NCBI GenBank assembly: GCA_022616555.1
Contig: JAKEEG010000068.1
Location: 912-64,911 of the forward strand
Origin: Ignavibacteriota bacterium
GTDB taxonomy: Bacteria; Bacteroidota; Ignavibacteria; UBA10030
Length of the DNA: 64,000 bases
Direction: 5' to 3'
Numbering within the stretch: the first letter of the stretch is position 1; each line of letters opens with the position of its first letter. Both the position numbers and the translations under genes were made by a program. The notes below the pieces were generated by a model. That model ran no database searches and was not told the origin of the DNA. It saw nothing but the letters and a program-made list of their open reading frames with translations. Positions 565-58,050 of this stretch are shown here, one piece after another.

Positions 565-768
565 ATGGCTAATCTTATCAAAGACACACAGGTTTTGTAC
601 GATGCCCGAGGCAAAAAGAGCCATGTGGTCCTGCCGTATGACAAGTACAAAAAACTCATAGAACGGCTTGAGGATGCTGAGGACATTCAGTTAATGAAAG
701 AAGTTGAGAACGAAGTTGGTATCCCTTGGGAGGAAGCTAAAAAGAAAATCCGGCGAAGGAAACGATGA
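565..768 (+). CDS. Type II antitoxin (Phd/YefM- or RelB-like) paired with the downstream RelE/ParE toxin
   Basis: 67 aa basic/acidic small protein; its stop overlaps the toxin start (ATGA at 765-768). Confidence 0.55.
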   Translation: MANLIKDTQVLYDARGKKSHVVLPYDKYKKLIERLEDAEDIQLMKEVENEVGIPWEEAKKKIRRRKR

Positions 769-1022
769 GTTACAAACTCATTGTAAAGCCGACTGCTTTA
801 AAAGAAATTGACGACCTTCCTGCCTCTTTTCAAGAGAGGGTTATCTCTACCCTTGATTCTCTACAGGCAAATCCTCGGCCAATAGGTTGTAAGAAGCTAG
901 CAGGAGCGAAAAATCGCTGGCGGATAAGAATTGGAGATTACAGAATATTGTACATGCTGGATGATTCGAAACACGAAATTTATATTTACAGAGTAGCCCA
1001 TCGCAAGGATGTTTACACGTGA
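765..1022 (+). CDS. RelE/ParE-family toxin (mRNA interferase type)
   Basis: 85 aa; C-terminal RIRIGDYRILYMLDDSKHEIYIYRVAHRKD resembles RelE/StbE toxins; 4 bp overlap with the antitoxin. Confidence 0.75.
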   Translation: MSYKLIVKPTALKEIDDLPASFQERVISTLDSLQANPRPIGCKKLAGAKNRWRIRIGDYRILYMLDDSKHEIYIYRVAHRKDVYT

Positions 1023-9753: not shown

Positions 9754-11424
9754 TTACCAACGGTAACTGAGGCCGCCGGTCACCATTAACGGCGGCGCTT
9801 GATAGCCTTTCCAGATTTCGTACTTTTCATTGGCGATGTTCTGGGCATCGACAAAAATGTTAAGCGACGGCAACGGTTCGTATTCTATTCTCAAGCCGAC
9901 CAACAAGAACCCCGGCAACTCTGCCAAGGCAGCAAGGCTTGATTCTCGGACGCCATAATAGCTCACGTTCGGTGTGAAGCTGACTCCGAACGGAAACCAA
10001 TGCGTGTACGAGCCGCCGGCTTCGTACTTCGGCACGTACGGCACCGCCCTGTCAGAAGCGTCGTTCTTTGTAGAGTTCACCGCCACCTTACCAGAAACAT
10101 AATCATTCGGCGTTAACTTTGCAAACCCTTCTGCTTGATATTTCCAGAATGTTGCTCCAGTATACGCAAATTGCCATATTCCCGCATTGAGAGGGTCGAA
10201 AGGCATGGCATACAGGTCCACGCGTTCATTGCTCGCGCTCAACAGTGTCTTGACGGAGCCCGACCAGTCGGATTCTATTGCTGCTGTGAGTCTCCGATTA
10301 ACATCTGAATGCCAAAAAGCAGAACCGGCGGAAAGATACGGGTTCGCTTGTACGCTTCCCTCAAGCTCATGAAAGCCAACCCTGCCCGAATAGGAAACAG
10401 ACGCCAGATGCGCTCCACCAACACGGTATCCGATCGCAACATCCGGATAAATCCGGGAGAAACGCTGATTCGACATTCCTTTTACCGAGTACGCGCTCGC
10501 CGCGCCTTGCAGGAACAAATTATTCCACCAGTAACGCGAGGTGCCTACGCGGAGCTGAAAGAGCGTCAAGTGTCCAGAATGCGCCCCTGAGAGGGTTGCG
10601 TTCGTATAACTGACGTTACCAACCAACGTCACCGAGCTCAACGGAAGCTCCGCATTCAACCCCAGCGTTGCTTTTTGTTGTAAGGTTTTCGCAGCGCTAT
10701 CGTCAACTTGAAAATAAGAATAGTCGAGATTTGGCGTCAGCGAAAATTCGGTTAACTGCTCCTGCGAGAGCGACAATCCCAGACGATAATTTGTTATCTC
10801 ACGACGAGTCGCCGGAGAGGGCGAGCCGTAAAAACGGTAGCCCTCCGAACCATAGGAGACATTACCTCCCAGCCTGTATCCTTCAAATGCGCCACTCTCG
10901 AAAAGCATTCCTCCACTCACTCCGAGATGGCCTCCCGAACGATCTGAATGGTCGACATATCCTTTCGTGCGATGGTAACCGACACTGACCAGATAATCAT
11001 AAGTGGGAAGAGCTTGTCCCAACCATAACTCTGCGCGCGGAGTAAAGTAACTTCCTAAACTTGCCATCGCCTGCCCGCTGAGAATCGATGAAGACGAAAG
11101 GAGCGATTCTTTCTGCCTGTTTTCAAGCTCTACAGTAACTCGCTCACGCGACCCCATGACATGATAGCCCCTGACGTCTGCCACGCGTGGGCGTTCCGCG
11201 ACACCTAGCTTGTACACGTCCGGAGCGCTCAATGAAACAATCCCGGTGATGACAAACTCCGGTAGCTCAATTTTGGGCAGCTGCGGATTTTGTGCTTCCT
11301 CCGTCTGCGGCAGTTCGACTTTTCGGGCCTCGGGTTCTTTTTTCTCAGTCGGCCCAGTACGCTGTTGAGCGTGCACTGACACTGTCAGCGCTGCCAGTAG
11401 AATATATGCAACAAGCCGTCTCAC
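9754..11424 (-). CDS. Outer-membrane beta-barrel protein (porin-like, function unknown)
   Basis: 556 aa; signal peptide, alternating beta-strand pattern, C-terminal aromatic residues (...GGLSYRW). Confidence 0.5.
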   Translation of the reverse strand: MRRLVAYILLAALTVSVHAQQRTGPTEKKEPEARKVELPQTEEAQNPQLPKIELPEFVITGIVSLSAPDVYKLGVAERPRVADVRGYHVMGSRERVTVELENRQKESLLSSSSILSGQAMASLGSYFTPRAELWLGQALPTYDYLVSVGYHRTKGYVDHSDRSGGHLGVSGGMLFESGAFEGYRLGGNVSYGSEGYRFYGSPSPATRREITNYRLGLSLSQEQLTEFSLTPNLDYSYFQVDDSAAKTLQQKATLGLNAELPLSSVTLVGNVSYTNATLSGAHSGHLTLFQLRVGTSRYWWNNLFLQGAASAYSVKGMSNQRFSRIYPDVAIGYRVGGAHLASVSYSGRVGFHELEGSVQANPYLSAGSAFWHSDVNRRLTAAIESDWSGSVKTLLSASNERVDLYAMPFDPLNAGIWQFAYTGATFWKYQAEGFAKLTPNDYVSGKVAVNSTKNDASDRAVPYVPKYEAGGSYTHWFPFGVSFTPNVSYYGVRESSLAALAELPGFLLVGLRIEYEPLPSLNIFVDAQNIANEKYEIWKGYQAPPLMVTGGLSYRW

Positions 11425-11425
11425 G

Positions 11426-14400
11426 TTATTTCCCCGCCAAAGCTTTCAACCTGCGGTCTGCTTCTGCCGTTATCTGTGCGTCTTTCTTAATTTTGAGAGC
11501 GTTCTGATACGCTTCTTTTGCTTTAGGAATGTCCTTCAAATTTTCATACGCAATACCGAGGCCAAGATACGCCCGCACTACCCAATCTTCAAAAGAAGGA
11601 TACACGTAGCGTACCCGCAGATACGCGGTCACAGCTCCCTGCCAGTCCTTCCGTTCAGCAAGAAACGCTCCGATGAGGTACTGTGCCTCAGCGCCGATCC
11701 CGTCGTTGCGTGATGTTGCAACTTCCTGCGCGAGCTCAAGCGCCTTTGCTGCATCGCCGGATTTTTGATTGAGGCGTGCCAGCGCAACGTTGGATTTTGC
11801 CGCGCCGTCCGAATTCGCATACCGTTTCGCAACAGCTTCAAACTGATTCTTCGCTTCCTCCGGGTCGCCGTTATCCAGGAACGCGGCGCCTTTCATATAC
11901 GCCGCTTCTGCCGCGGCATTGGACTGCGGGTAGTTTGCCTGGATTTTTTCAAAGACGCGAAGCGCCTTGTCGTACATCTTGAGGTCGAAGTAAATCGTGC
12001 CGGCTTCAACAAGCGCGTCAGCCGCAACACTCGACGGCGCGCCCTGCGCCCCCGCCGCCCGCTCAAATGCAGAAGCAGCTTCCGAAGCGCGGTCTAACCC
12101 CTGCAGGCTTTTGCTATACCAGAAAAGCGCGTTCGCAACTAACTTGGAGTCCGGATATTTGGTTGTAAAGGACTGAAACGCGGTCGCAGCCTCTGCATAT
12201 TGCTTCTGGTTGTAGAGCAGGTCCGCTTTCTTCAGCGCGAGGTCTTCGGCAACAGGCGAGTTCGGGTTCGCCTGCAGGAATTTATCTATCACGCCCGCGG
12301 CCTCCTGCTGTTTGCCTTGCGCAACCAAGCAGTACTGAATGCCTGTTAGCGCGTCTGCGGTGTACTGGGTATTAGGATATTTCAGCAACAGGTCACGGTA
12401 GGATTTTTCCGCTTCCGCGTATTTCTGCAGATTATAATTTGCATCACCGATGCTATATAATGCGCGGGGAACAACATCACTGGAAGGATACGCTGAAAGC
12501 ACTTTCCGGAATTCCTTAATCGCGTCGGCATATGCCTTGCTTTGGAAGTGAATCCAGCCCAGCGCGTATTGAGAATCGTCCGCATACGCTGAATTGGGAA
12601 ATGTCCTCATCACTGCCGTAAACTGTTGTGACGCCTGAGCCAGATCGCCGTCCCGGTAATACGTCTGTCCAAGCTGGTAGAACGCGTATTCCACTCCCTC
12701 GCGCTGGGCGTATTGCCTTGTGACGATACGGTACGTGGCGGAAGCGTTCTTATAATCCTTTAGGAAGAAATACGAATCCCCAAGCCTGATGCGCGCGTCA
12801 AACACGAATTTTCCGTTGGGGAAAGCATTCAACAACCTGGTAAATGCATCCCGGGATTTATCGAATTCATTGAGCTTGTAATGAGACCAGGCAACGCCGT
12901 ACATCGCCTCTTCTTTGCGCTCGTGGCTTGCAAGGCTTGCCACCTTCTGATACTGGCCAATGGCAAGTTTGTATTCGCTCATCTGGTACAGTGCTTCAGC
13001 CTGCCAAAATGCAGCATCGACAGCTAATGGAACCTTTGGATAGTCCTTAATAAACTCGGCAAAACCGGCGGCTGCTTCTGTGAATTTTTTGAGCTTGTAC
13101 ATGCTCCACGCCCCTTGGTAGCCGGCGGAGCTTTTCACATCAAACGACGCATTCGGCTGTGCGACGGCCTTTTCAAACATGGCAGTCGCCTGCTCAAAAT
13201 TCTCTTCGAGGATAAGACATTCTCCAGCCATGCGATAGGCGTCGGGAAGCACATCACTCTTGGGATAGCCGTCGATCAAGCGCTCAAAAAATCCCCGCGC
13301 TGCAGTATAGTCTTTCTCATCGAAAGAAATAATGCCTGCGTCGTATAACGCGTTGTCGGAAAATTCGCCCATCGGCGCGCGGGTCACGACGTCCTGAAAA
13401 ATCTGCACGGCGGCTTTACGTTCGCCGGCGAATTTTGTTGCAACGCCGCTTCGATAGAGCCCCGCGTGGGCAAGAGCATCGCTGCCGGAGCTGAGCCTGC
13501 CGAATGCTTCTGCAGCCTGCGCAAATTTGTCCTGTTTCATGAAGCTCCAACCAAGGGCGTAAATCACTTCACGCTCCAGTTTGCTGCCGCGGTGATCCTT
13601 GAGAAAACCTTCATACAGCTTTTGCGCTGAAGAATACTGGTCCTGGTGATAGTACGCCTCTGCAATCAAATAATCGGCTTCCGCTTTTTCCTGTGCTTCG
13701 GTAATGCTCGGCTTTGCCGTCATGAGATAGTTAATGGCGTGCTTGTAGTCCTTCACGTAAAAATAGCACTCACCGACCCGCACTTTGGAAGCCGAGACCA
13801 GACTGCTCTGCGGAAATTCTTTTACCAGCTTCTCATACCAATCGACGGCTTTGGGATACTCTTTCTTTTGTTGGTATGTCCACGCAACAGAATAGAGCGA
13901 GTAATCCCGCAGACGATTGTTAGGATAATGTTCGTAAGCGATGGTGTAGTACTTCAGCGCAGCGTCGTAATCCTGCACCCGCACAGATGCCTCCCCGATC
14001 CAGTATGCCGCTTCGCCGGCAAGTTCACGGTCACCGTAGTCGTCCAGCACTGTTTTGAACGCGCCGATTGATTCGGGAATGTTTTTCAGTTTCAGGTTGG
14101 CTTCGCCCAAACGGAAATATGCATCATCGGTAAGTGGTGTTGCCGGATAATCTTTTACGTACCTTCCGGCAAGTCTCGCAACGTCTTTGTACTTTCCGAG
14201 CTGATAACGACATTCAATGCCGAGGAACTCCGCTTCACCGCGGCGGATACTCGCTGGGTACTTGTCAAGAAACTTGTTGAATTGCTCCAGCGCTTGTTGA
14301 TAGAGATTGTCTTTGTATAAACCGTACGCAAAAGTAAAATCCTGGTCTTCTGCAACGGCCGATGACGCGCGCTGAATAGAGGACTGGCTGTAGAGCGATG

Positions 14401-14509
14401 GCTGGTAAACAACTGGAAGAGAAAAAAGCGAAAGAAGAAAAGACAGCTTAAGGATTCGACTTCCCCCAGTCATACGGTACAACAACAAAATATGTAGAAG
14501 GTAACGCAC
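11426..14509 (-). CDS. Giant tetratricopeptide-repeat (TPR) protein
   Basis: 1027 aa; signal peptide followed by more than 20 TPR-like repeats (A/W-Y-Y/L-G...); first gene of the operon ending in tonB. Confidence 0.8.
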   Translation of the reverse strand: MRYLLHILLLYRMTGGSRILKLSFLLSLFSLPVVYQPSLYSQSSIQRASSAVAEDQDFTFAYGLYKDNLYQQALEQFNKFLDKYPASIRRGEAEFLGIECRYQLGKYKDVARLAGRYVKDYPATPLTDDAYFRLGEANLKLKNIPESIGAFKTVLDDYGDRELAGEAAYWIGEASVRVQDYDAALKYYTIAYEHYPNNRLRDYSLYSVAWTYQQKKEYPKAVDWYEKLVKEFPQSSLVSASKVRVGECYFYVKDYKHAINYLMTAKPSITEAQEKAEADYLIAEAYYHQDQYSSAQKLYEGFLKDHRGSKLEREVIYALGWSFMKQDKFAQAAEAFGRLSSGSDALAHAGLYRSGVATKFAGERKAAVQIFQDVVTRAPMGEFSDNALYDAGIISFDEKDYTAARGFFERLIDGYPKSDVLPDAYRMAGECLILEENFEQATAMFEKAVAQPNASFDVKSSAGYQGAWSMYKLKKFTEAAAGFAEFIKDYPKVPLAVDAAFWQAEALYQMSEYKLAIGQYQKVASLASHERKEEAMYGVAWSHYKLNEFDKSRDAFTRLLNAFPNGKFVFDARIRLGDSYFFLKDYKNASATYRIVTRQYAQREGVEYAFYQLGQTYYRDGDLAQASQQFTAVMRTFPNSAYADDSQYALGWIHFQSKAYADAIKEFRKVLSAYPSSDVVPRALYSIGDANYNLQKYAEAEKSYRDLLLKYPNTQYTADALTGIQYCLVAQGKQQEAAGVIDKFLQANPNSPVAEDLALKKADLLYNQKQYAEAATAFQSFTTKYPDSKLVANALFWYSKSLQGLDRASEAASAFERAAGAQGAPSSVAADALVEAGTIYFDLKMYDKALRVFEKIQANYPQSNAAAEAAYMKGAAFLDNGDPEEAKNQFEAVAKRYANSDGAAKSNVALARLNQKSGDAAKALELAQEVATSRNDGIGAEAQYLIGAFLAERKDWQGAVTAYLRVRYVYPSFEDWVVRAYLGLGIAYENLKDIPKAKEAYQNALKIKKDAQITAEADRRLKALAGK

Positions 14510-22186: not shown

Positions 22187-22819
22187 ATGCCCATGTCGCC
22201 CCGCGTACGCAAGTTTGCGCTCACAGCGCACATCACATTTTCGGTTGGGTGGTTTGGAGCAGTTGCTGTATTCCTTGCTCTCGCCCTTGCCGGTCTGACA
22301 AGCCAGAACGCCCAGCTGGTTCAAGCGGCGTATGTTGCGATGGCACTCAGCGCTTGGTTCGTGATTGTCCCAGCCAGCTTTGGCGCGTTTTCGACGGGTT
22401 TGATTCAATCGCTTGGAACACAGTGGGGTTTGTTCAAACATTACTGGGTTGTTGTAAAACTCCTGCTCACCGTCATCGCCACCGGATTGCTGTTGTTGCA
22501 CATGGAGCCCGTCAGTTATCTTGCGGAGATAGCATCCCAAATTACGCCTTCCGGTACCGAATTCCGCTCAATACAGCTTCAACTTGTCGGCGACGCATCC
22601 GCAGCACTGTTCGTACTGGGCGCAACGATAGCGATCTCTGTTTACAAACCGTGGGGTCTAACGCCGTACGGAATTCGCAAGCAGCAAGCTCAAGCAGAGA
22701 TGAGAAATGAGAAGAGCGCGAAAAGATCTCAGGGTTTTTATATCTTGATCGGGCTTTTAGTTCTCGGAGTGTTAATCGCAATTATACATCTGCTCGGGGG
22801 CGGTTTAGGCAATCATTGA
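22187..22819 (+). CDS. Hypothetical integral membrane protein (4-5 TM helices)
   Basis: 210 aa; hydrophobic helices; no family recognised. Confidence 0.45.
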   Translation: MPMSPRVRKFALTAHITFSVGWFGAVAVFLALALAGLTSQNAQLVQAAYVAMALSAWFVIVPASFGAFSTGLIQSLGTQWGLFKHYWVVVKLLLTVIATGLLLLHMEPVSYLAEIASQITPSGTEFRSIQLQLVGDASAALFVLGATIAISVYKPWGLTPYGIRKQQAQAEMRNEKSAKRSQGFYILIGLLVLGVLIAIIHLLGGGLGNH

Positions 22820-23469
22820 TTCGACGCACTCGCTGTCTCAACTTCCGCTTTGCGTTCCTGCCGAAGTTTGGCGATCCGTTTACTCACCCACTCCCATACA
22901 CGATAAAGTAGCAGCACACCAATGATCGCGCCGTATGTTAGCGGGCGCTGCGTGTCGGCTTTCACCAGCCAGAGATAGTGTATCACGCCGCAAATCCCCG
23001 TTACGTAAACCAGACGATGTAACAATTGCCAGCGCTTGCCGCCAATCCATTTAGTGATACGGTCGGTTGAGGTCGCTGCGAGCGGTATCATGAGCGAATA
23101 CGCCGTAAAGCCAATGAGGATAAACGGGCGTTTGGGAATATCCGCCAAGATTTCTCCCCACTCAAAGAACTTATCGAAGTACAGGTATGTGAAGAAGTGC
23201 AGCGAGCCGTAGAAGAACGCGTAGAGCCCGAACATACGTCTTAACTGAAGTAACTGATTCCATTTCGTGATGCGCCTGAGCGGAGTGATGCTCAACGTGA
23301 TGACGATGAAGCGGAGCGTCCATGTTCCGGTTTCGTCGGTGATATCATCCAACGGATTGGCGCTGAGCGTATCGGTCAGCACACCATACACGAGCAAGCC
23401 AAGAGGAACGAGGGCAAGGATGAAAAGCGCCGGCTTAAGTACTCTGCGGAACCACTGTTGTTGGGTCAT
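22813..23469 (-). CDS. msrQ: Protein-methionine-sulfoxide reductase heme-binding subunit MsrQ (YedZ-like)
   Basis: 218 aa; ferric-reductase-like TM protein with conserved His residues; adjacent to msrP. Confidence 0.75.
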   Translation of the reverse strand: MTQQQWFRRVLKPALFILALVPLGLLVYGVLTDTLSANPLDDITDETGTWTLRFIVITLSITPLRRITKWNQLLQLRRMFGLYAFFYGSLHFFTYLYFDKFFEWGEILADIPKRPFILIGFTAYSLMIPLAATSTDRITKWIGGKRWQLLHRLVYVTGICGVIHYLWLVKADTQRPLTYGAIIGVLLLYRVWEWVSKRIAKLRQERKAEVETASASNQ

Positions 23470-23548
23470 GTTTTAGGAATGCCAAATATCAAAGCTCAAA
23501 TTACAAATGAGGGGATTTGACATTTGGATTTTGAAATTTGGAATTGCT

Positions 23549-24508
23549 TCAAAAGTATCTCTTCAGGTCCATTCCTGCGTACAGATGTTCGACGTATTCG
23601 CCGTAGCCGTTGAACATCAGCGTTTTGCGCTTGAAGAACTCGCCGATGCGGCGCTCGCTGCTCTGGCTCCAGCGCGGGTGGTCGACGCTGGGGTTGACGT
23701 TCGAGTAGAAGCCGTACTCATCGGAGTTTGCCTGCGTCCATGTTGAGACTGGTTGGTTCTCCACGAAGCGAATTTTCACAATCGACTTGATGCCCTTAAA
23801 GCCGTACTTCCACGGCACAACGAGGCGGAACGGCGCGCCGTTCTGGTTCGGCAGCTCCTTCCCGTACAATCCCACGGCAAAAATCGCCAACGGGTGCATT
23901 GCCTCGTCCATGCGCAGTCCTTCGACGTAGGGCCAGTTCAGGTACGGGCGCTTCTGGCCGGGCATTTGATTGGAATCCAGCAACGTTGTGAACTCAACGA
24001 ACTTCGCTTTGGGCAGCGGCTCGAATTTTTTGAATAGCTCGGAAAGTGGAAAGCCCAGCCACGGAATCACCATCGACCACGCCTCGACACAACGCATGCG
24101 GTAGATGCGGTCTTCCAGCGTGATGCCTTTAAGCAGGTCTTCTAAGTTGTATGCTGCAGGCTTCTTGGCCAGCCCTTCGACTTTTACCGACCACGGTTTT
24201 GTTTTGAAATTCTGCGCGTTCTCCGCCGGGTCATCTTTATCGATGCCGAACTCATAAAAGTTATTGTACGTCGTAATGTCTTTATACGGCGTGAGCTTTT
24301 CATCGGTATCAAACGGGCTTTTCTGCTTAGGCTTCCAGTCCTGCTGCTCCAGCGCTGATAATCTCCTCAATGGCTGCTCGATGATTGAGCCGACAGCAAG
24401 TCCAGCCGCAGCTGCACCCGCTGTGCGGATGAACTGGCGTCGATTATGATAGAGCGGCTCAGGGGTTATTTCGGATGAGAGAATATCGTTGGCGCGCTTG
24501 ATGAGCAT
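23549..24508 (-). CDS. msrP: Protein-methionine-sulfoxide reductase catalytic subunit MsrP (YedY-like molybdoenzyme)
   Basis: 319 aa; Tat signal [18 protein letters not shown] and a sulfite-oxidase-like Moco domain. Confidence 0.85.
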
Positions 24509-24695: not shown

Positions 24696-26306
24696 TTACG
24701 AGCGCTCTTGCTTCCACCAGCGGTCGACAACCTGGCCGATATGAGTCTCGACGCCGCTTTGCTTCCACTTGTCGAAGAAACGGATGTCGGAGCTTTCCGG
24801 TTCTGGGTTGGGATAATCAACTTGCACGCGCAGGGGCATGGGCATCGAGTCGCCGACGACAAGCGCTTCGCCCTGTCGAAGCGCAGGGAGCACATCGACC
24901 AAACCGGAAAACGAATCAGGCACAAGCCTTCGCACATAGTTCTGGTCGAGCGGATTCGTGAGGCGTAAAATAACGAAATTCGAGCACTGCGACAGGATCG
25001 TTTCAGACACCTCCGTGGGGCGCTGGCTGACGATCATACAACTGACGCCGTACTTTCTGCCTTCCTTCGCGATGCGTTCGACAACGCGGCGTGCGGCTTT
25101 CGTGGTAGAGCCGCCGCTCGGCAGATAGTTATGCGCTTCTTCGAACACCAGCAAGATTGGGAAATCGCGGCGGTGCATGTTCCAGAAATTGAAATCGAAG
25201 GACATGCGCGCGAGCATCGCGACGATGGTGTTGACGATATCGAACGGTACACCGCTCATATCCATAATGGTCACCTTGGCGGCTCCTGCTTTTCCGAAAA
25301 TCTTCTCCATCAATTCCTTCATCGATTCCGAGGTGAGGTACAGCCTCGGCTTGAACATAAACGCGTAGCGCGGGTCGCTCAATTTACTGTCCAACCGCAC
25401 GAGGAAGCGCGTGAACTTGCCGTAGAACGGCCCCTCTTTCGTGCCTGCGGAACCGACGCCGCTGATTTTTTCCGTGTCCAGGTACTGTACTTTTGCGCGC
25501 ACCTCGGCGATATCAAAATAGACCGGCGTATCGATCGTGAGCACATCTGCCAAGCTGGGATTTTTTCCTTTTTTCGAGGCGATGACGAGATCCTTCAATA
25601 CGGTAATCTGACTCGACGCATTCTCGTCGCGCTCATCAATGAACATCTCCTGCATCTCCTCGAAGTTCATCAGCCAGAACGGGAATTCCAATTCCGCGAT
25701 GTTCAGGTAATTGGATGAGCCGGCGAATGCCGCCTGGTACTCGTTGTGGATGTCGAGGATGATGATATTGGTATCCGGGAAGCTTGTGACTTTCTGCAAG
25801 AGAGACGAGACCGTGCATGATTTTCCCGAGCCGCTGGAGCCGAGCACGGCGATGTGCTTGCCGAAAAACCGGTTCGGGTCAAGGTAACTCCGTTCGTTCT
25901 CAAACATCGACAGGTTGCCGATGGAAAACCCGAACTTGCGGAACACGGAGAACACAGCGGTCAAGTCCGCATCTTCCGCGAGGTAAACGACCGTATCGAC
26001 CGGAGGCACAATGGAAACGCCTCGCTCGTAGCGCCCGCCTTTGACGGTTCCGACAAGATTCACCGTCATCACGTAGCGCTGCATGCCGCTGCCGTTGAGC
26101 TGTACGTCTTGCTTCCGGAAATCGGAAACCATCGCCACGACGATGAGTTTCGCAAACGGGATGAGCACGTAGCTGCTGATCTGCCCGATATAGTAGGTTT
26201 TGCCGTTGAACTCGCGGACGAGATTATCGATCTCTTCATCGATCAGAACGGTAATGCCGCCAGTGGTTACTTCCGAAACAACACCGATGCGTTTTTGGTC
26301 TAACAT
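24696..26306 (-). CDS. HerA-like (DUF87, FtsK/HerA-superfamily) hexameric ATPase
   Basis: 536 aa; N-terminal HAS-barrel-like segment, Walker A VLGSSGSGKSC, Walker B LLVFEEAHNYLP, and a C-terminal SQRPTEV...ILRLTNPLDQNYV block typical of bacterial HerA/DUF87. Confidence 0.8.
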   Translation of the reverse strand: MLDQKRIGVVSEVTTGGITVLIDEEIDNLVREFNGKTYYIGQISSYVLIPFAKLIVVAMVSDFRKQDVQLNGSGMQRYVMTVNLVGTVKGGRYERGVSIVPPVDTVVYLAEDADLTAVFSVFRKFGFSIGNLSMFENERSYLDPNRFFGKHIAVLGSSGSGKSCTVSSLLQKVTSFPDTNIIILDIHNEYQAAFAGSSNYLNIAELEFPFWLMNFEEMQEMFIDERDENASSQITVLKDLVIASKKGKNPSLADVLTIDTPVYFDIAEVRAKVQYLDTEKISGVGSAGTKEGPFYGKFTRFLVRLDSKLSDPRYAFMFKPRLYLTSESMKELMEKIFGKAGAAKVTIMDMSGVPFDIVNTIVAMLARMSFDFNFWNMHRRDFPILLVFEEAHNYLPSGGSTTKAARRVVERIAKEGRKYGVSCMIVSQRPTEVSETILSQCSNFVILRLTNPLDQNYVRRLVPDSFSGLVDVLPALRQGEALVVGDSMPMPLRVQVDYPNPEPESSDIRFFDKWKQSGVETHIGQVVDRWWKQERS

Positions 26307-26340
26307 GGATGCGCTCCCCTTCTAGCAATAAAGGTAAATG

Positions 26341-27573
26341 TTAGTGAACTCTCTTGACAATTACAACGGTCTTGTCATCCGTATTCTCAGAACCCTTTGA
26401 AAACGTCTGGACATCCTCTAAAATAGCTTTGCAGATTGCCTCGGCGCTCTCCTCGGCATACTCCTCCACTTTCTCCGCAATGCGGCGTTCGCCATAAAGT
26501 TCATCGTTGCTGTCCGTCGCCTCGCTAATGCCGTCGGTATACATGACGAGAATATCCCCCAACGCCATACGCGTGTTTTCCACACGGAAGCGTTCCTGTG
26601 GGAACGGCCCCAGCACTTGTCCTGTAGCCTCGAGCATTTCAATTCTGCGGTCGTGTGCATGATACAACACCGGACTGTTATGTCCCGCATTGCAATACAA
26701 CAGCAAGCCTTTCTGGTCGTCTGCGAATTCCGCGTAGAACATGGAAACGAACTGTTCTTCCGAGAACGTGGAATTCACCAGCGAGTTGATGCGCGCGACG
26801 AGAGAGCTGATTTTTGTATGATACGAAATGCCCATCCGCAGCGCGCCCACGACGTACAACGCCTGCGACGCCGCGCGGAAGCCTTTACTGGCAGCGTCCG
26901 CGATGAACACGCTCAGGCGGTCGCGTTCTTCATCGCCGAACAAGTAGTCGAAAAAATCGCCGCCGACAATACGGTCGGGGATCGACATGCCGTAGAGTGC
27001 GTAGTTATGAAAGTCCAGCGCGGGCTGCGGGAGAATGCTTTGCTGAATCTCGCGCGCCTTATCGATATCGCGCTCGAGCAGTTTCGCTTTCTGCTCGATT
27101 TTCTTGCCCTTCAAGCGCGCCGTCAGCGCGAGGCTGATGATATTCAGCTCGCTTAAATGGCTGTGGTCCAACTCCTCGGAGTTGAACGCAAGCACGTACT
27201 GGTACACCGGACCGTTCTTGGACGGCTGCCTATCGCCGACACCCGTCGCAGAGTATTTCAGAATGCCCTTCTTGCGCAGATATTTATCGGTCTCGCGCGC
27301 GATAATCGAGCGGTGCATGCCGAGTTGAACAAAAACCGGATATTCCGCGAGCACGATGCGATAGCCCGGCTCGATTTTCTCGATCACACCGATTTGGTGA
27401 AGCAGACGATACGACTCGGTAGATGTTTCAAACTGCCAGATACGTCCGCCCTGAATGCTGATGTTCTCGTTCTTGACGATTTCGTTGACGACGTGTTTCA
27501 ACAGCTGCGCGTCGGACTTGAAATCGTTCGAAACAAAACTTTCTATGGTTTTATATAATCTTCGTTGGTGCAT
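26341..27573 (-). CDS. PP2C-type Ser/Thr phosphatase (SpoIIE/RsbU-like) with an uncharacterised N-terminal domain of about 170 aa
   Basis: 410 aa; C-terminal PP2C/SpoIIE motifs GGDFFDY, SVFIADAASKG, YCNAGHNSPVLY, YTDGISEA; the N-terminal domain is unassigned (possibly GAF/PAS-like); ends 35 nt upstream of herA. Confidence 0.75.
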   Translation of the reverse strand: MHQRRLYKTIESFVSNDFKSDAQLLKHVVNEIVKNENISIQGGRIWQFETSTESYRLLHQIGVIEKIEPGYRIVLAEYPVFVQLGMHRSIIARETDKYLRKKGILKYSATGVGDRQPSKNGPVYQYVLAFNSEELDHSHLSELNIISLALTARLKGKKIEQKAKLLERDIDKAREIQQSILPQPALDFHNYALYGMSIPDRIVGGDFFDYLFGDEERDRLSVFIADAASKGFRAASQALYVVGALRMGISYHTKISSLVARINSLVNSTFSEEQFVSMFYAEFADDQKGLLLYCNAGHNSPVLYHAHDRRIEMLEATGQVLGPFPQERFRVENTRMALGDILVMYTDGISEATDSNDELYGERRIAEKVEEYAEESAEAICKAILEDVQTFSKGSENTDDKTVVIVKRVH

Positions 27574-27757
27574 TGAATCCTTTTGTAATTTGCCACTATG
27601 TCACTAAGAAATTAAAATCTTACTTGTCTACCCCCTGCATTCCGTTCACGTGGCGAACGGAACGCGTCCCGCTTGATGAAGGAGGACAAAAAGCTTTTCT
27701 TTAACTGCGCAACCTAAACTACCGAAGCAATCCCCTCGGGAGTGGTTTGCTTTTCTG

Positions 27758-29941
27758 TTAAGCTTTTACTTTTCTTTTCTGTACTTCATAAATTTTAATC
27801 GGCTTTGCCTTTCCCTTGACCTTGATCGGGTCGAGAGCAACAAGCTTAAACTCTTTCGGCGAGCCGAGGTGTTTCAATGCGAAATCGGACATGAGAATCT
27901 GCCCGCCTTTCGCCGCGCTACACAGCCGCGCGCCGAGGTTCACGTTATCGCCGATCACAGTATAATCCATTCTTTCCTCACTGCCCATGGCGCCCATCAC
28001 CATCTCACCTGTATTAATGCCGATGCCGATGGCAATGCGTTCTTTGCCGTCAGACAGGGCGTCATTTGACAATTCTTCCTGTATTTCCAGCGCTGCGCGC
28101 AGGGCATTTTCGACCATCTTTCCGCCTTCAAATACCGCCACAAGCTCATCACCGACGTACTTATCGATGTCGCCGCCGTATTTTTTCACGATGGAAGATT
28201 GCCGCGACAACGTGGTGTTGAGCATGGTAACGACTTTTTCAGGCTCGACGTCTTCCGAAAACGCCGTGAAGCCGCGAATATCCGAGAAAAACACCGTGGC
28301 GACTTTCCGCTCGCCGCCGAGCCGAACACCCTGCAGGTCGGCTCTGCTCACCGCGTCGGCGGTCTGGCGCGAGACGAACTTTTGAAGGTGCAGGCGTTCG
28401 CGCAATCCTTTCGTCATCTCGTTGATGCGACGGGCAAGATTCCCGATTTCATCACTGGAGTTTTCCTCTGCGTGCGCAGAGAAATCTCCTTCACCGATGC
28501 GGAGTGCGACACCCTCGATGGCTTTGACGGGTTTTACTACCACAGAATTCATAAAGATGCGCAGGACGCCCCACACGAAGAAGATCGTGACAATGCCCAC
28601 TGCTGTTGAGCGGACTTTGTTGGCATTTATCGCTTCGTTAATATCACCCATCGACGCTGAGATTTCCACGACGCCGCGCACCTTGTGGTTCCTGCCGTGG
28701 CACGAGTAGCACCGCTGCTCATTGCGGAGCGGCGTAAGCATCACGAGTCGGTCATCATCGCCTTCGCGAGCAACAAACTCCATTGTCGCCACGCTATCCG
28801 CTACCAATTTTGTTTCAATTCTCTGGCGCGGTGTGGGATTGAGAAAACGCTCGTTGCCGTCTTTATCATACACACTCAGTTTTTGAATGACGGGCAAGGA
28901 GCGTATTTCGTCCAGATAGTAACGGGCAGAACCGGCGCGCCCAACGAGCATGATGCCGCGGAAACCCTCGAAGAGCGCTGTCTGAAACACCGGCGTCAGC
29001 TTTTTAGCGACATCCGAGCTGAACATCCGCAACGAGTCGGCATCAAAATCCACAGCAAGCACGCCGCGCATGGGAAACTTCTCGCCGTGGCAGATCTGAC
29101 AACGCTCCTCGTTTGCCAGCGGCAACAGCAGGCTCAGCGTCTTCCCGTTGCGCTTGAATTGTTTTTCTTTTGTACGATTTTCGATGATTTCAAGAATCGG
29201 TTCGGCGTCGACTTCATCTTCGTAATCACCGAACGCGATATCGCCCAGCCTGCTGAACACCCGTACTTGTTTCACCGCCGGGATGTTCTTGGAGGCGAGC
29301 ATCAGCGTATCCATAAACTCTCCGCCACCGCCGACCATAATGTTGCGAAACGCGGTGGCGATAAAATCGCCCATAATGCCGGCTGTCTGCTGCACGGTTT
29401 CTTCAGTACTACCCGTGCGCATGGCGCTCGGTTTCAACGCTAATTGCAGTACGCCGCGAATATGGTCCTTGGGATCGTGGCAGCGCCAGCATTCGACTCT
29501 GTTGGGCAGCGGCTCGTAACGCGTCAGGATATCCTCCCCAGCGGTGTTGCCCATCGTCCAGTGCGTTGCATGAGCACTGAGTGTTTGGCTGAGGAGCGTG
29601 TCGGTCTCGTGCACATTGTAAATGACGCCCTCGCCTTCGCGCAGGAAGACCTCGCGCCCCAGCCGGTCGTAGATCGTCAGGTCGCCGAAGCTATTCAGGT
29701 TCTGCCGGACGTCGTTCACCAGCTCGGCGGCGTACGGCGATTTGCCGGTGAGCATCACGTTGCGGATGCCCGCCATGATTGTCTCCGAGTAGAGCCAGAG
29801 CTTCTCGCGATGGTCTTTCACCATCTGCTCGGATTCCTTCTGAATGCTGACGATAACGTAACTGCCGAACCCGATGAGGAGTACGGCGGTCAGCAGCAGG
29901 AGAATTTTATACTCGAGGCGTTCCCGAATTGCCCGAATCAA
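27758..29941 (-). CDS. Membrane-bound class III adenylate/guanylate cyclase with a HAMP linker and a periplasmic sensor carrying three CxxCH motifs
   Basis: 727 aa; TM1 near residue 15; a roughly 420 aa periplasmic region with three repeats ending CWRCH, CQICH and CYSCH, each followed by ...RGV(L/V); TM2, HAMP, then the cyclase homology domain (FSDIRGFT, VGDELVAVF, GINTGEMVMGAMG, IGDNVNLGARL). Confidence 0.85.
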   Translation of the reverse strand: MIRAIRERLEYKILLLLTAVLLIGFGSYVIVSIQKESEQMVKDHREKLWLYSETIMAGIRNVMLTGKSPYAAELVNDVRQNLNSFGDLTIYDRLGREVFLREGEGVIYNVHETDTLLSQTLSAHATHWTMGNTAGEDILTRYEPLPNRVECWRCHDPKDHIRGVLQLALKPSAMRTGSTEETVQQTAGIMGDFIATAFRNIMVGGGGEFMDTLMLASKNIPAVKQVRVFSRLGDIAFGDYEDEVDAEPILEIIENRTKEKQFKRNGKTLSLLLPLANEERCQICHGEKFPMRGVLAVDFDADSLRMFSSDVAKKLTPVFQTALFEGFRGIMLVGRAGSARYYLDEIRSLPVIQKLSVYDKDGNERFLNPTPRQRIETKLVADSVATMEFVAREGDDDRLVMLTPLRNEQRCYSCHGRNHKVRGVVEISASMGDINEAINANKVRSTAVGIVTIFFVWGVLRIFMNSVVVKPVKAIEGVALRIGEGDFSAHAEENSSDEIGNLARRINEMTKGLRERLHLQKFVSRQTADAVSRADLQGVRLGGERKVATVFFSDIRGFTAFSEDVEPEKVVTMLNTTLSRQSSIVKKYGGDIDKYVGDELVAVFEGGKMVENALRAALEIQEELSNDALSDGKERIAIGIGINTGEMVMGAMGSEERMDYTVIGDNVNLGARLCSAAKGGQILMSDFALKHLGSPKEFKLVALDPIKVKGKAKPIKIYEVQKRKVKA

Positions 29942-55229: not shown

Positions 55230-56234
55230 CTATTGGGTCAAAAGAATAATCCCATCACGTCCAACGGATATAGTTTCCTTTACTTTTGATGCATTCAATT
55301 CAAGAAAGTTATCTGAAAAGAAGCGAATCGCTTTTTCGGGATTTCGACGTTCGGAGATGTTCTCTAGCACTTCAGAATCTATCCCGAAATATAAGTTTGG
55401 GGTTCCTATTGCTCTGATTTTGAAATTACGTCCGAATCGTTCGATTGTTCGAGCCTGAAACCACTCGGATTGGTTCACAAAGACTGAGTAGTAATCCCTT
55501 AAGTAGTCCATAAATTCGACCGTGATTTTAACACCAGAGTCTTGTTCCTCATCGGGATCAATTATTTGACCTTGGATTGGGTCAGTAGACATGTCATAGA
55601 ATGCGGCTATGCGAGTCGCCGGAGGTAGGTTATTCACGCTTACGACTTGTGATACTTGGTAAATTGCGTGTTGTAACTCAGCATCGTTTCTTCCAGATGA
55701 ATATCCTTTCGCCTCAACAATATGAGGTCGTCTTGCAACATCGAACCCTACTAAATCAGGGATACGAGCTGGTTTATTGTTTGCATAAAGTTTGACTTTG
55801 GGCGGAAGTTGTACACCTGTAGGAGAGAGAATTACGCCTGTCATGCGTTTGGTATGCACCAACCACGGTACACCAAGCAAAATTTCAACTGAAGCACGTA
55901 CAAAGCCCATTCCCAAATGATAAGAAACTGAGATCTTCTCGCTCATTTCCAATCGATTGATGAATGTATCAGATAATTTAAGGTAGCCACTATTGTCTTC
56001 AGTGACGTGTGCATAGGTCATAGATAATAGGCAGGCTAGACGCCAAAAGCCGAGATGAAAAACATCCATAATGCCAGCTTGCCCAACCATCATAACTGAT
56101 CTTGCCAGATCTTGTAAGGAAATGTCAAGGTTTCTGCCTACAGCATTTAGCGTGGTGTATGCGCCAGAGAATCTGGAAATGTCAGCTTTAATCATGGTAT
56201 TCGTAACTGAATTTTGACCGTTTACAGTTGCCAC
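55230..56234 (-). CDS. Hypothetical protein with a PD-(D/E)xK nuclease-like motif (AT-rich island gene 3)
   Basis: 334 aa; IPDLVGFD...HIVEAKGY fits the PD-x(n)-ExK restriction-endonuclease-fold signature; no other domain recognised. Confidence 0.5.
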   Translation of the reverse strand: MATVNGQNSVTNTMIKADISRFSGAYTTLNAVGRNLDISLQDLARSVMMVGQAGIMDVFHLGFWRLACLLSMTYAHVTEDNSGYLKLSDTFINRLEMSEKISVSYHLGMGFVRASVEILLGVPWLVHTKRMTGVILSPTGVQLPPKVKLYANNKPARIPDLVGFDVARRPHIVEAKGYSSGRNDAELQHAIYQVSQVVSVNNLPPATRIAAFYDMSTDPIQGQIIDPDEEQDSGVKITVEFMDYLRDYYSVFVNQSEWFQARTIERFGRNFKIRAIGTPNLYFGIDSEVLENISERRNPEKAIRFFSDNFLELNASKVKETISVGRDGIILLTQ

Positions 56235-56302
56235 GCGGAAAGTGGGAACAAAAAAACTGACGGACAGGGCCTAACGTTCAGTGTATTCCTTTGTTTCCAT
56301 TT

Positions 56303-56917
56303 CTATGTTGTGGGTTTTGTTCGTCCTCGTTCAACCTTTGCTGGTAGAACAAAAAGAAAATCAGCCAGAGCTAGTGCGAAGTTAATGCATTTTCTTGCCT
56401 CATCTTCACCAGGGAGAGGCTCCGCATCGTCGGCATGTCTTTGGTCGTTGGCATCAAGGCGCACTTCGTGAGCCCATTGTGCCATTTCGGTCGTGATGAG
56501 ATGATCAGATGCAGCCCTATCTATTCTACTATAGAGCGACCCCTCCTTAAGTCCTTTCACTTTTAGCATTGAATCAACCGCACTGGCAGCCAGCATAACA
56601 GCGCCTGCCGGAGCGTGCAGACTATCAATAGATTGTTGTAAGTACGAACGGGCAGGATTAGGAATAACTTGATCAGCTATTTGGGCGCTCGGATACATTT
56701 CTGTCACTATGCCATCCTGTCCTTGGGAACTCGCACACAAGATTTGCCCCCCACACGTAATACACCGATAGGCACTCCACCAGCGTTTATTCGCTCCAGA
56801 AACGGAAACTGATTCTTGCGAACCAAAGACTCTATCAAGTCGAGGCTTAGCTACGCTACAGTGTGGGCAACGAGGAAGGTCAAGCTGGTTGAGCATCTGC
56901 GTTAAGATTTCATTCAT
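56303..56917 (-). CDS. Zn-ribbon plus DUF4145-like (possibly HEPN-related) protein (AT-rich island gene 2)
   Basis: 204 aa; N-terminal CPHC...CITCGG zinc ribbon; C-terminal helical domain resembling DUF4145 (AAGAVMLAASAVDSMLKVKG ... AHEVRLDANDQRHAD). Confidence 0.45.
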   Translation of the reverse strand: MNEILTQMLNQLDLPRCPHCSVAKPRLDRVFGSQESVSVSGANKRWWSAYRCITCGGQILCASSQGQDGIVTEMYPSAQIADQVIPNPARSYLQQSIDSLHAPAGAVMLAASAVDSMLKVKGLKEGSLYSRIDRAASDHLITTEMAQWAHEVRLDANDQRHADDAEPLPGEDEARKCINFALALADFLFVLPAKVERGRTKPTT

Positions 56918-57053
56918 CGATAGAGTCCTCTATTATTTTGCTACATTGACAGGCAGCCGGACATGACACCTAACGTTTAACGGCGCGACGCAGTGCTTTT
57001 TAAACTCGTGAACTATTCGAGTATCTTTGCACCGCTTGTTAGCTTCAGTGCAG

Positions 57054-57614
57054 TTACGATACATTCATCTTCAATAACGAAAGAACAATTACTCCGAGAA
57101 AAATCCAAACAACAGAGATTTTCATAGCTAACGTAGCCCATCTATAAGGACGATATTTGTTTCTGACAAGCTGGAGTGTTGTGAAATGAAGCTTGAAATA
57201 ATTCTGGCGAATTGACGAATCATTAAATCCTTCGAGAGTGCTTATATAGTTCTCGGGTGCCGATGGAAAATTATGTTTAGGCCACATCACGTAATTGTTA
57301 ATCTGCATTTCTGTGAAGGGAACATTGAGACCGAAAAATTTTCTCGAGGGGCGAATAGTCTGAAGTAAAAGTAGCGCTACAACAGTAAACAGAAAAAAGG
57401 ATACCGCTAAAAAGATGTAACTCACCGTATTGATTGTTGATGATTGATGAGTTATGAATATTTCATTGACAGCGTATGTCAATGAACCAATTAAAACGCC
57501 TTGAACCGCTAGCAAAATATCCGCCTTGTTGTCAACCAAGTTTATTCGGTTCTCCAAATGAGTGACCGAATCTCTTAGAAATTCAATTACTTTGCTTTGC
57601 GTAGTGTCTTCCAT
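57054..57614 (-). CDS. Small 3-TM membrane protein (AT-rich island gene 1)
   Basis: About 187 aa from the ATG at 57614 (AAGGA ribosome-binding site 9 nt upstream); N-terminal amphipathic helix then three hydrophobic helices; the 293 aa ORF extension into GC-rich DNA is probably spurious. Confidence 0.5.
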   Translation of the reverse strand: MEDTTQSKVIEFLRDSVTHLENRINLVDNKADILLAVQGVLIGSLTYAVNEIFITHQSSTINTVSYIFLAVSFFLFTVVALLLLQTIRPSRKFFGLNVPFTEMQINNYVMWPKHNFPSAPENYISTLEGFNDSSIRQNYFKLHFTTLQLVRNKYRPYRWATLAMKISVVWIFLGVIVLSLLKMNVS

Positions 57615-58050
57615 TTGTGTATCCTTTCCGTTTACAGATTGCTTACTGCATAACGCCCAACTCGTGAATCTCCTGATTTCGTATGCCCCTTCCACAAAAC
57701 ACAAAAGCCCCTGTCGTTGAAGAATCAACTCCAGAGGCTTCTCTAAACTCTCGCTACACATTAAGGCTCCCCTTCCTCCTAAGCCCGCCATTAAGATTGG
57801 CGGGCAGGCGCCTTCCCGCAGTGCGGGATCCCAAACAACCCCAAAGGGGCAGGCGGGACTGGTGGCATAATCTTTTTCTCGCAAAGGCGTCCCGCTATAA
57901 TGCAGCGGGATGCAAAAAACGCACAGAGAGCGCAAAGGTATATTTATGTCAAAAGCTCTTCTTAGCGTGCTTTGCGTCTTGGCGAGAGACTCAGCTTTAG
58001 TACTTGTTTAATATACAAACTCGCGGGGAAAAAGCAAACCCCATTAACAA

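Follow-up and report, generated by a model that had tools for sequence, protein, structure and literature searches.

Rings of the HerA ATPase are known in two roles: they are the motor of NurA end resection, and in abortive-infection defence they form the scaffold by which SIR2 or DUF4297 effectors are turned on. In all three solved partnerships (NurA, SIR2 and DUF4297), the neighbour attaches to the ring at its HAS face (PMC11291478; bioRxiv 10.1101/2024.10.24.620088). In the defence complexes both enzymes become active on assembly, and in DUF4297-HerA it is the HAS domain that holds the partner; the C-terminal hook, or brace, of this type of HerA has also been described (PMC11291478; bioRxiv 10.1101/2024.10.24.620088). 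Here we analyse a stretch of 64,000 nucleotides (nt) from an Ignavibacteriota bacterium (assembly GCA_022616555.1, contig JAKEEG010000068.1, positions 912 to 64,911), called the window below, in which a HerA gene directly follows a gene for a PPM-type sensor phosphatase. The pairing of HerA with a PPM phosphatase is undescribed in the sources searched, whereas the superfamily of each protein and the GAF-PPM architecture are already known. The comparative evidence for the pairing is solid, within a taxonomic range of one poorly cultivated phylum.

The design in which a sensor domain is joined to a PPM domain by a helical linker is documented, and the linker passes the signal by controlling dimerisation (PMC12143880). 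Regulation through GAF, PAS or receiver domains and a linker is documented as well; RsbZ of C. difficile is a GAF-PPM example, and coiled-coil linkers occur in RsbU, RssB and RsbZ (PMC12143880). No paper found in our search of open-access literature relevantly joins HerA/DUF87 with SpoIIE/RsbU, or Ignavibacteria with HerA. A first-pass annotation of the window, made by a model from the sequence, knew of no system of HerA and PP2C, and neither our open-access literature search nor PADLOC gave a description of one.

Organization of the gene pair

Both open reading frames were verified on the minus strand of the window, and their strand and sizes agreed with the first-pass annotation. The gene transcribed first encodes a GAF-linker-PPM (RsbU/SpoIIE-type PP2C) sensor phosphatase of 410 amino acids (aa; 26341-27573). 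The second encodes a HerA-family hexameric ATPase of 536 aa (24696-26306), placed in the DUF4297/SIR2-associated branch by Pfam DUF87, PADLOC HerA and Protein Data Bank (PDB) chains. The family matches of both proteins are far above chance level. The genes are adjacent on the same strand, as had been noted, and the gap between them measures 34 nt (26307-26340) rather than 35. This spacer carries GAAGGGGAG, which resembles a ribosome-binding site in sequence and site scan, and a sequence scan matched no promoter-like or terminator-like site within it.

Conservation of the gene pair

One genome per species was scanned with a HerA alignment, and the window proteins were compared by tblastn with the best 80 of the 298 loci, all from metagenome-assembled genomes of Ignavibacteria/Bacteroidota. 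In the clade nearest to the window, HerA1 (about 60 species, HerA 66-92% identical), the GAF-PP2C gene lies directly upstream of the HerA gene wherever upstream sequence exists, and both halves of the phosphatase are 57-89% identical to those of the window protein. The spacer between the two genes has a median length of 29 nt (67 related loci). The flanks of the HerA1 clade vary: msrP lies directly downstream in 33 of 57 loci and a cyclase gene directly upstream in 16 of 52. A metagenome scan seeded with distant phosphatases, together with HerA look-ups, found a second linked lineage of nine loci, in which HerA is about 50% identical, the GAF domain is 44-52% identical and the spacers are 17-21 nt long. 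Its flanks are unlike those of the HerA1 clade, with DUF1684 upstream and M16 peptidases or Por-tail proteins downstream. At one locus (L168) the phosphatase and HerA genes are rearranged but still only 1.3 kb apart. A conserved third gene was sought; the cyclase and MsrPQ genes are frequent but not constant, and unlinked lineages have unrelated housekeeping neighbours.

The second linked lineage is a third lineage of HerA, and it branches outside the split between HerA1 and its paralog HerA2 in a midpoint-rooted neighbour-joining tree. The linkage of phosphatase and HerA therefore appears to be ancestral and older than the HerA1/HerA2 duplication. The two proteins have correlated pairwise distances (r = 0.81), and the trees of both genes agree. 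These comparisons provide good evidence that the operon is kept by selection. The pairing might have proved to be an adjacency peculiar to one genome; instead it is genuine, the two genes being conserved neighbours in about 60 species of the HerA1 clade and again in the second lineage.

HerA ATPase

The 536 aa protein matches Pfam DUF87 (E 1.5e-33), and PADLOC model PDLC04105 covers its residues 3-535 with 528 bits. In the putative N-terminal HAS-barrel region, PADLOC PDLC04099 spans residues 3-191 (E 1.9e-22), and phmmer alignments to solved HerAs begin only at residues 54-77. The Walker A, Walker B, SQRP and LRLTNPxD hallmarks of the HerA/DUF87 branch, reported in the first-pass annotation, were all located. 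Walker A is GSSGSGKS (residues 156-163; 25818..25841, minus strand, as are all features of the pair), and residue mapping equates K162/S163 with K157/S158 of the HerA in 8xau. Walker B is LLVFEEAH (residues 385-392; 25131..25154), in which E389/E390 correspond to E426/E427 of 8xau. The EGRKYG motif (residues 415-420; 25047..25064) contains R417/K418, equivalent to the trans-acting arginine finger R455/K456 of 8xau. Walker A, Walker B and EGRKYG are invariant in alignment A1, which holds 21 homologs. SQRP is found at residues 427-430 and LRLTNPLD at residues 447-454. The C-terminal brace/hook region ends in RWWKQ (residues 529-533; 24699..24800) and aligns to the last residues of 9c1m, 8ziq and 8xau; its R, W and W are invariant. 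HerA is apparently a catalytically competent ring ATPase, as its motifs suggest.

The nearest PDB chains are those of DUF4297-HerA, 9c1m (368 bits) and 8xau (318 bits), and SIR2-HerA 8wiv scores 258 bits. The chain 8ziq, the partner of which was not identified, scores 352 bits. NurA-type HerA structures score far lower (4d2i, 114 bits; 7f6d, 28 bits), and the NurA-type NCBIfam model helicase_HerA (NF040819) gives 138 bits against a cutoff of 970. The best NCBIfam matches are the equivalogs HerA_antiphage_2 (432 bits, cutoff 850) and HerA_antiphage (186 bits, cutoff 800). Because the protein is closest to anti-phage HerAs by PDB and PADLOC comparison yet below the NCBIfam equivalog cutoffs, it is, judged by its sequence, a relative of them and not an equivalog. 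NurA, Mre11 and Rad50 had no Pfam match among the called genes of the 64 kb window. A NurA-type housekeeping HerA was thus rejected on the sequence scores and the absence of NurA from the window. Clustering with NurA-type HerA, which the first-pass annotation had named as evidence against its proposal, was not found; the scores favour DUF4297/SIR2-associated HerA.

The match to Pfam HerA_C (DUF853) is marginal (21.5 bits against a cutoff of 22), and some database entries label HerA proteins of Ignavibacteria as 'DUF853 family'. E. coli YjgR is a stand-alone HerA-like/DUF853 ATPase that is encoded among housekeeping genes and has no known nuclease or NADase partner. Unlike ATPases of the YjgR type, the HerA described here is closer to the defence type and has a conserved phosphatase neighbour.

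Sensor phosphatase

Residues 217-408 of the 410 aa protein match Pfam SpoIIE (E 6.9e-41), which confirms the C-terminal SpoIIE/RsbU-type PP2C domain assigned earlier. The N-terminal part of about 170 aa had been left unassigned, and a Pfam search of residues 1 to about 180 gave no match; the Pfam GAF models also miss this domain. AlphaFold models were made of the whole protein (pLDDT 84) and of residues 1-186 (pLDDT 85). Both predict an alpha/beta domain of residues 1-137 and a single helix of residues 138-180 (43 residues by DSSP), followed in the whole-protein model by the PPM domain. A fold search assigned the N-terminal domain to the GAF fold, and both this fold and the linker helix are confidently predicted. 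The GAF part of the earlier proposal of a GAF/PAS-like sensor is therefore supported, whereas PAS was rejected. An RsbU four-helix partner-binding domain was rejected for the same reason.

The predicted divergent GAF sensor domain (residues 1-137; 27163..27573) is followed by a long helix, a predicted linker analogous to the coiled-coil linkers of RsbU, RssB and RsbZ (residues 138-185; 27019..27162), which includes the DKAREIQQSILP motif (residues 171-182) and runs into the PPM catalytic domain (residues 186-410; 26344..27018). The PPM motifs are GGDFFD (204-209), DAASKG (226-231), TDGISEA (346-352) and DDKT (399-402). The DKAREIQQSILP motif and the metal-binding residues D206, D209, D226, D347, D399 and D400 are invariant across 37 orthologs. 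In fold searches, the structures closest to the PPM domain were the RsbU domain of Rv1364c, SiaA, SpoIIE, RsbX and RssB. As modelled, the protein is a sensor phosphatase with a GAF fold, a helical linker and a PPM fold with intact metal-binding Asp residues, and it is apparently catalytically active. GAF domains that bind cyclic nucleotides were not among the top structural matches, and the GAF domain of the phosphatase is no closer to them than to other GAF domains.

A search for this GAF family found 74 clusters among 1.84 billion representatives, in which the domain is always N-terminal in proteins of about 400-450 aa. The phosphatase resembles the RsbU/RsbP/RsbZ/RssB/SiaA type in its PPM fold and in an N-terminal sensor joined by a long helix (PMC12143880). 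It differs from that type in that its GAF domain is a narrow, lineage-specific variant undetected by Pfam GAF models, in that STAS or anti-sigma kinase partners are not found nearby, and in its conserved HerA neighbour, none being reported for those phosphatases. Taken alone, the phosphatase is a sequence-divergent addition to the known GAF-PPM architecture. Genes for STAS anti-anti-sigma factors or GHKL anti-sigma kinases were found neither in the 64 kb window nor adjoining the phosphatase gene in 130 related loci. It had been considered that the N-terminal domain could be a common RsbU-type partner-switching domain; the GAF fold and the absence of STAS and anti-sigma genes from the window do not agree with this. 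At three loci (L055, L058 and L064) the phosphatase matches fall in two reading frames, through a frameshift or an assembly error, and an occasional pseudogene may be present.

Genomic context of the pair and of the window

Upstream of the phosphatase gene lies a gene for a 727 aa membrane protein (27758..29941, minus strand), in which Pfam matches indicate a class III nucleotide cyclase, preceded by HAMP and by three sensor repeats of the c-heme (CxxCH) kind. The gene is a variable neighbour and possibly an input of the pair. The CxxCH motifs, at C151, C281 and C411, are exactly 130 residues apart, in Mcp40H-20/Tll0287-like sensor repeats. A Lys-Thr specificity pair suggests an adenylate cyclase, presumably as in class IIIb cyclases. 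The protein matches Pycsar PycC models merely as a generic cyclase. The gap between the cyclase and phosphatase genes is 5-232 nt across loci and 184 nt in the window, but only 5-20 nt in the closest relatives, and the 184-nt stretch is therefore an insertion specific to the window genome. A perfect 8-bp inverted repeat, TTCCGTTC-N7-GAACGGAA, is found within it at 27640-27662. Downstream of HerA, and likewise variable neighbours, are msrP (23549-24508; Pfam Oxidored_molyb and a twin-arginine translocation signal) and msrQ (22813-23469; Pfam Ferric_reduct), which together occupy 22813..24508 on the minus strand. The order cyclase-PP2C-HerA-msrP-msrQ is found in the window and in relatives.

The genes of the 64 kb window are of the housekeeping kind (AlaRS, isocitrate dehydrogenase, CarB, MoaC, aconitase, MsrPQ, MutS, ClpB, BamA, LpxDCA), with DinB-family genes and MutS near the pair, and the flanks are housekeeping genes in all lineages examined. 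HerA is the most conserved local gene: its mean identity is 73.7%, whereas the phosphatase, MsrP and MsrQ reach 64-67% and the cyclase 61%, and purifying selection at the locus is strong. Pfam searches detected neither DUF4297 nor SIR2 in any part of the window, and no PADLOC model matched the phosphatase. No Rfam match was found at 20-32 kb of the window and no tRNA in the whole window, nor was there an island border near the pair. A search of IMG/VR gave no relatives, and a plasmid search with the GAF domain gave no match. The nearest plasmid HerAs are 35-39% identical, and in these a DUF4297 gene overlaps HerA in the upstream position that the phosphatase gene occupies here. A mobile-element origin was rejected on these grounds: no IMG/VR relatives, and plasmid HerAs at most 39% identical and accompanied by DUF4297.

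Several other features of the window were recorded. A PycTM-like protein (57054-57935; PADLOC PycTM, E 1.7e-11) is encoded in a cluster at 55230-57935 on the minus strand, together with a DUF4145 protein (56303-56917) and with a protein of 334 aa that has no family match (55230-56234). A patch of low GC content (0.45-0.47 at 56-60 kb) holds this cluster, and no Pycsar cyclase gene lies beside it; perhaps it is what remains of a defence system, orphaned or degenerate. Directly upstream of alaS, and overlapping its start, lie genes for a RelB-like antitoxin and a ParE toxin (about 565-1022, plus strand). Two adjacent large proteins without a Pfam match (9754-11424, 556 aa; 11426-14509, about 1015-1027 aa; minus strand) are encoded near SPOR, ExbB/ExbD and TonB genes.

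Discussion

The pairing differs from known HerA systems in the class of the partner and in genomic behaviour. DUF4297-HerA (8xau, 9c1m; PMC11291478; bioRxiv 10.1101/2024.10.24.620088) has the closest HerA by sequence. The two share a domain plan in which a putative HAS domain is followed by a RecA-like core with a helical insertion and by a long C-terminal brace; Walker A, Walker B and the arginine finger match, and in both a partner gene of about 400 aa lies directly upstream of HerA. Here, however, a GAF-PPM phosphatase takes the place of the Cap4-like nuclease, a spacer of 34 nt separates genes that otherwise overlap, and the locus is chromosomal, seemingly inherited vertically and flanked by housekeeping genes instead of being borne on plasmids or islands. 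The HerA described here is also about 35-80 aa shorter, mostly in the DNA-contacting insertion, and 35-39% identical to plasmid examples. SIR2-HerA (8wiv; PMC11472057, PMC11514289) has a related HerA, and there too a HerA hexamer assembles with the enzyme encoded upstream and activates it; in contrast, no SIR2 domain is found here, the similarity of HerA is lower than to the DUF4297 type, and genomic behaviour differs too. NurA-HerA (4d2i, 7f6d; PMC3326311, PMC9960219) shares the ATPase superfamily and the overall fold plan, and its partner lies on the HAS face, but sequence similarity is much lower and the 64 kb window contains no NurA gene.

Our preferred explanation, held tentatively and with a little less than even confidence, is that the cytoplasmic sensor phosphatase and the HerA ring ATPase form a functionally coupled operon of Ignavibacteria that is vertically inherited and does not serve defence. 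Because neighbours bind the HAS face in all three solved HerA partnerships, a phosphatase dimer could dock onto the HerA hexamer at its HAS-barrel face, in the manner of NurA, SIR2 and DUF4297. The signal of a GAF ligand and the state of HerA, which depends on ATP or DNA, would then jointly control dephosphorylation of a substrate, possibly HerA itself; or, conversely, the phosphatase would act on HerA by dephosphorylating it. In part of the clade the ligand could perhaps be cyclic AMP (cAMP) from the adjacent heme-sensor cyclase. Sensing of cAMP by the GAF domain is an attractive hypothesis that adjacency cannot extend to the whole family. The unit would serve cellular signalling or stress physiology and not phage defence. 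Sequence alone cannot tell regulation of HerA by the phosphatase from the reverse, or from simple co-expression of the two.

A number of observations weigh against such coupling. Among 130 complete members of the GAF-PP2C family, HerA is downstream in 68, clearly absent in 53, and in nine too little sequence is available. The phosphatases without HerA lie in other housekeeping syntenies (ClpC-pterin dehydratase-PyrE-M64 peptidase, aldehyde dehydrogenase and others), and one unlinked clade is placed beside a small linked clade in the tree. The HerA2 paralogs (62-66% identical, often in the same genomes) are found without a phosphatase in the order PurQ-GatA-SucD-HerA2-Ndk, and a further HerA lineage has a YihY/BrkB membrane protein after HerA and no phosphatase within 8 kb. 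Only S260 and E272 separate linked from unlinked phosphatases, and only three positions separate phosphatase-linked HerA1 from HerA2; with so few discriminating positions in either protein, the sequences carry no signature of an interface dedicated to the partner. Solved HerAs could not be aligned with the first 55-75 residues of the HAS domain, nor with the insertion that in 8xau bears the DNA contacts R284/K287; what is known of partner binding and DNA translocation can therefore not be carried over confidently. The link to the cyclase is confined to a subclade, and co-transcription and physical contact of the phosphatase and HerA are only inferred. Because each is found elsewhere without the other, the phosphatase lacking HerA and HerA paralogs lacking the phosphatase, the pairing is lineage-restricted and not obligatory at the level of gene order.

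The relatives outside the pairing have neighbours of their own. HerA2 is fixed between sucD and ndk with no partner gene (L071 6995-8596, L074 6995-8602, and 15 other loci among L062, L065 and L067-L082). YihY/BrkB lies directly downstream of the phosphatase-less HerA with gaps of 0-41 nt (L174 4551-7123, L175 5234-7795), and in another clade, HerA-less GAF-PP2C genes are immediately preceded by a YihY/BrkB gene with a 33%-identical product (L102, L106, L110, L111, L114, L122 and L135). It could be a bridging neighbour or a coincidence. About 7 kb away from HerA-BrkB there is a gene for a STAS protein of 115 aa (L174 13606-13953, L175 14161-14508). Partner-switching components thus exist in the phylum, though none is near the phosphatase studied here.

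These points bear most directly on the explanation that the genes are neighbours by descent, perhaps co-transcribed yet independent, the phosphatase acting on its own substrate (for example a STAS protein encoded elsewhere) and HerA standing alone. The 53 loci in which the phosphatase lacks HerA and looks alike, the HerA paralogs without a phosphatase, the missing interface signature and the STAS gene 7 kb from a PP2C-less HerA in related genomes are all as expected from it. Gene order that is not operonic would usually be expected to decay more than is seen here. In about 60 of about 60 loci the spacing stays near 29 nt although the genes on either side change, the pair is kept in a second lineage at about 50% identity among unrelated flanks, and at L168 it stays within 1.3 kb despite rearrangement. 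We therefore consider independence of the two proteins rather unlikely, though it deserves serious attention. A narrower proposal joins the five-gene order into a module for DNA maintenance under redox or oxidative stress, in which cAMP from the cyclase acts through the GAF-PP2C to switch on HerA as a DNA translocase, beside MsrPQ repair of oxidised periplasmic proteins. It accounts for the order found in the window and relatives, the cyclase-PP2C gaps of down to 5-20 nt, the three CxxCH repeats and the nearby MutS and DinB-family genes. Nevertheless, the cyclase adjoins in only 16 of 52 and msrP in only 33 of 57 HerA1-clade loci, and the second linked lineage has neither. Cyclic-nucleotide-binding GAFs resemble the GAF domain no more than other GAFs do, HerA has no evident nuclease partner, and the DNA-contact residues of defence HerA cannot be aligned; such a module seems quite improbable.

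The first-pass annotation had offered a new HerA-based defence module as one of its two options. In an anti-phage system of this kind, PP2C would replace DUF4297 or SIR2 as the infection-activated effector, and might for instance remove phosphate groups from essential proteins of the host or the phage. The similarity of HerA to defence HerAs (9c1m/8xau/8wiv; PADLOC 528 bits; HerA_antiphage_2 432 bits) and the gene order shared with DUF4297-HerA are consistent with this, and the PycTM-like gene elsewhere in the window indicates that the genome has defence parts. The 432 bits, however, are far under the equivalog cutoff of 850, the phosphatase is without any PADLOC match, and sucD and ndk enclose a HerA paralog that has no partner. 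In all lineages the locus is flanked by housekeeping genes, which HerA exceeds in conservation, the phosphatase and HerA trees are congruent, and no phage or plasmid copies were found in the IMG/VR and plasmid searches. An anti-phage system is therefore the explanation to which we give least weight, as very unlikely. Of the two options, defence is disfavoured because of the housekeeping context, seemingly vertical inheritance, the conservation of HerA and the lack of mobile or phage relatives, and the pair behaves as a stable chromosomal signalling unit. Its function is probably signalling or housekeeping.

A more specific form of the coupled operon can be imagined, in which Ignavibacteria have taken a defence-type HerA ring permanently into their core genome as a platform for phosphatase signalling, with a GAF-gated PPM dimer in the position of the nuclease or NADase. 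Dephosphorylation would be licensed jointly by a small molecule (in some species maybe cAMP from the periplasmic heme-sensor cyclase) and by an ATP- or DNA-dependent conformational change of HerA. We regard this form as unlikely but worth stating. If true, it would be the first HerA-effector complex with a signalling and not a destructive output, and an exchange of machinery between immunity and housekeeping.

If the two genes are merely co-inherited, our data amount to a modest annotation note for a phylum rich in uncultivated members. If the coupled operon is real, a ligand-sensing Ser/Thr phosphatase would be a third kind of HerA partner, and the principle that HerA activates its upstream neighbour would extend beyond immunity. 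The pair would give a handle on the signals sensed by HerA-type scaffolds and on the role of PPM sensor phosphatases in phyla without linked partner-switching targets.

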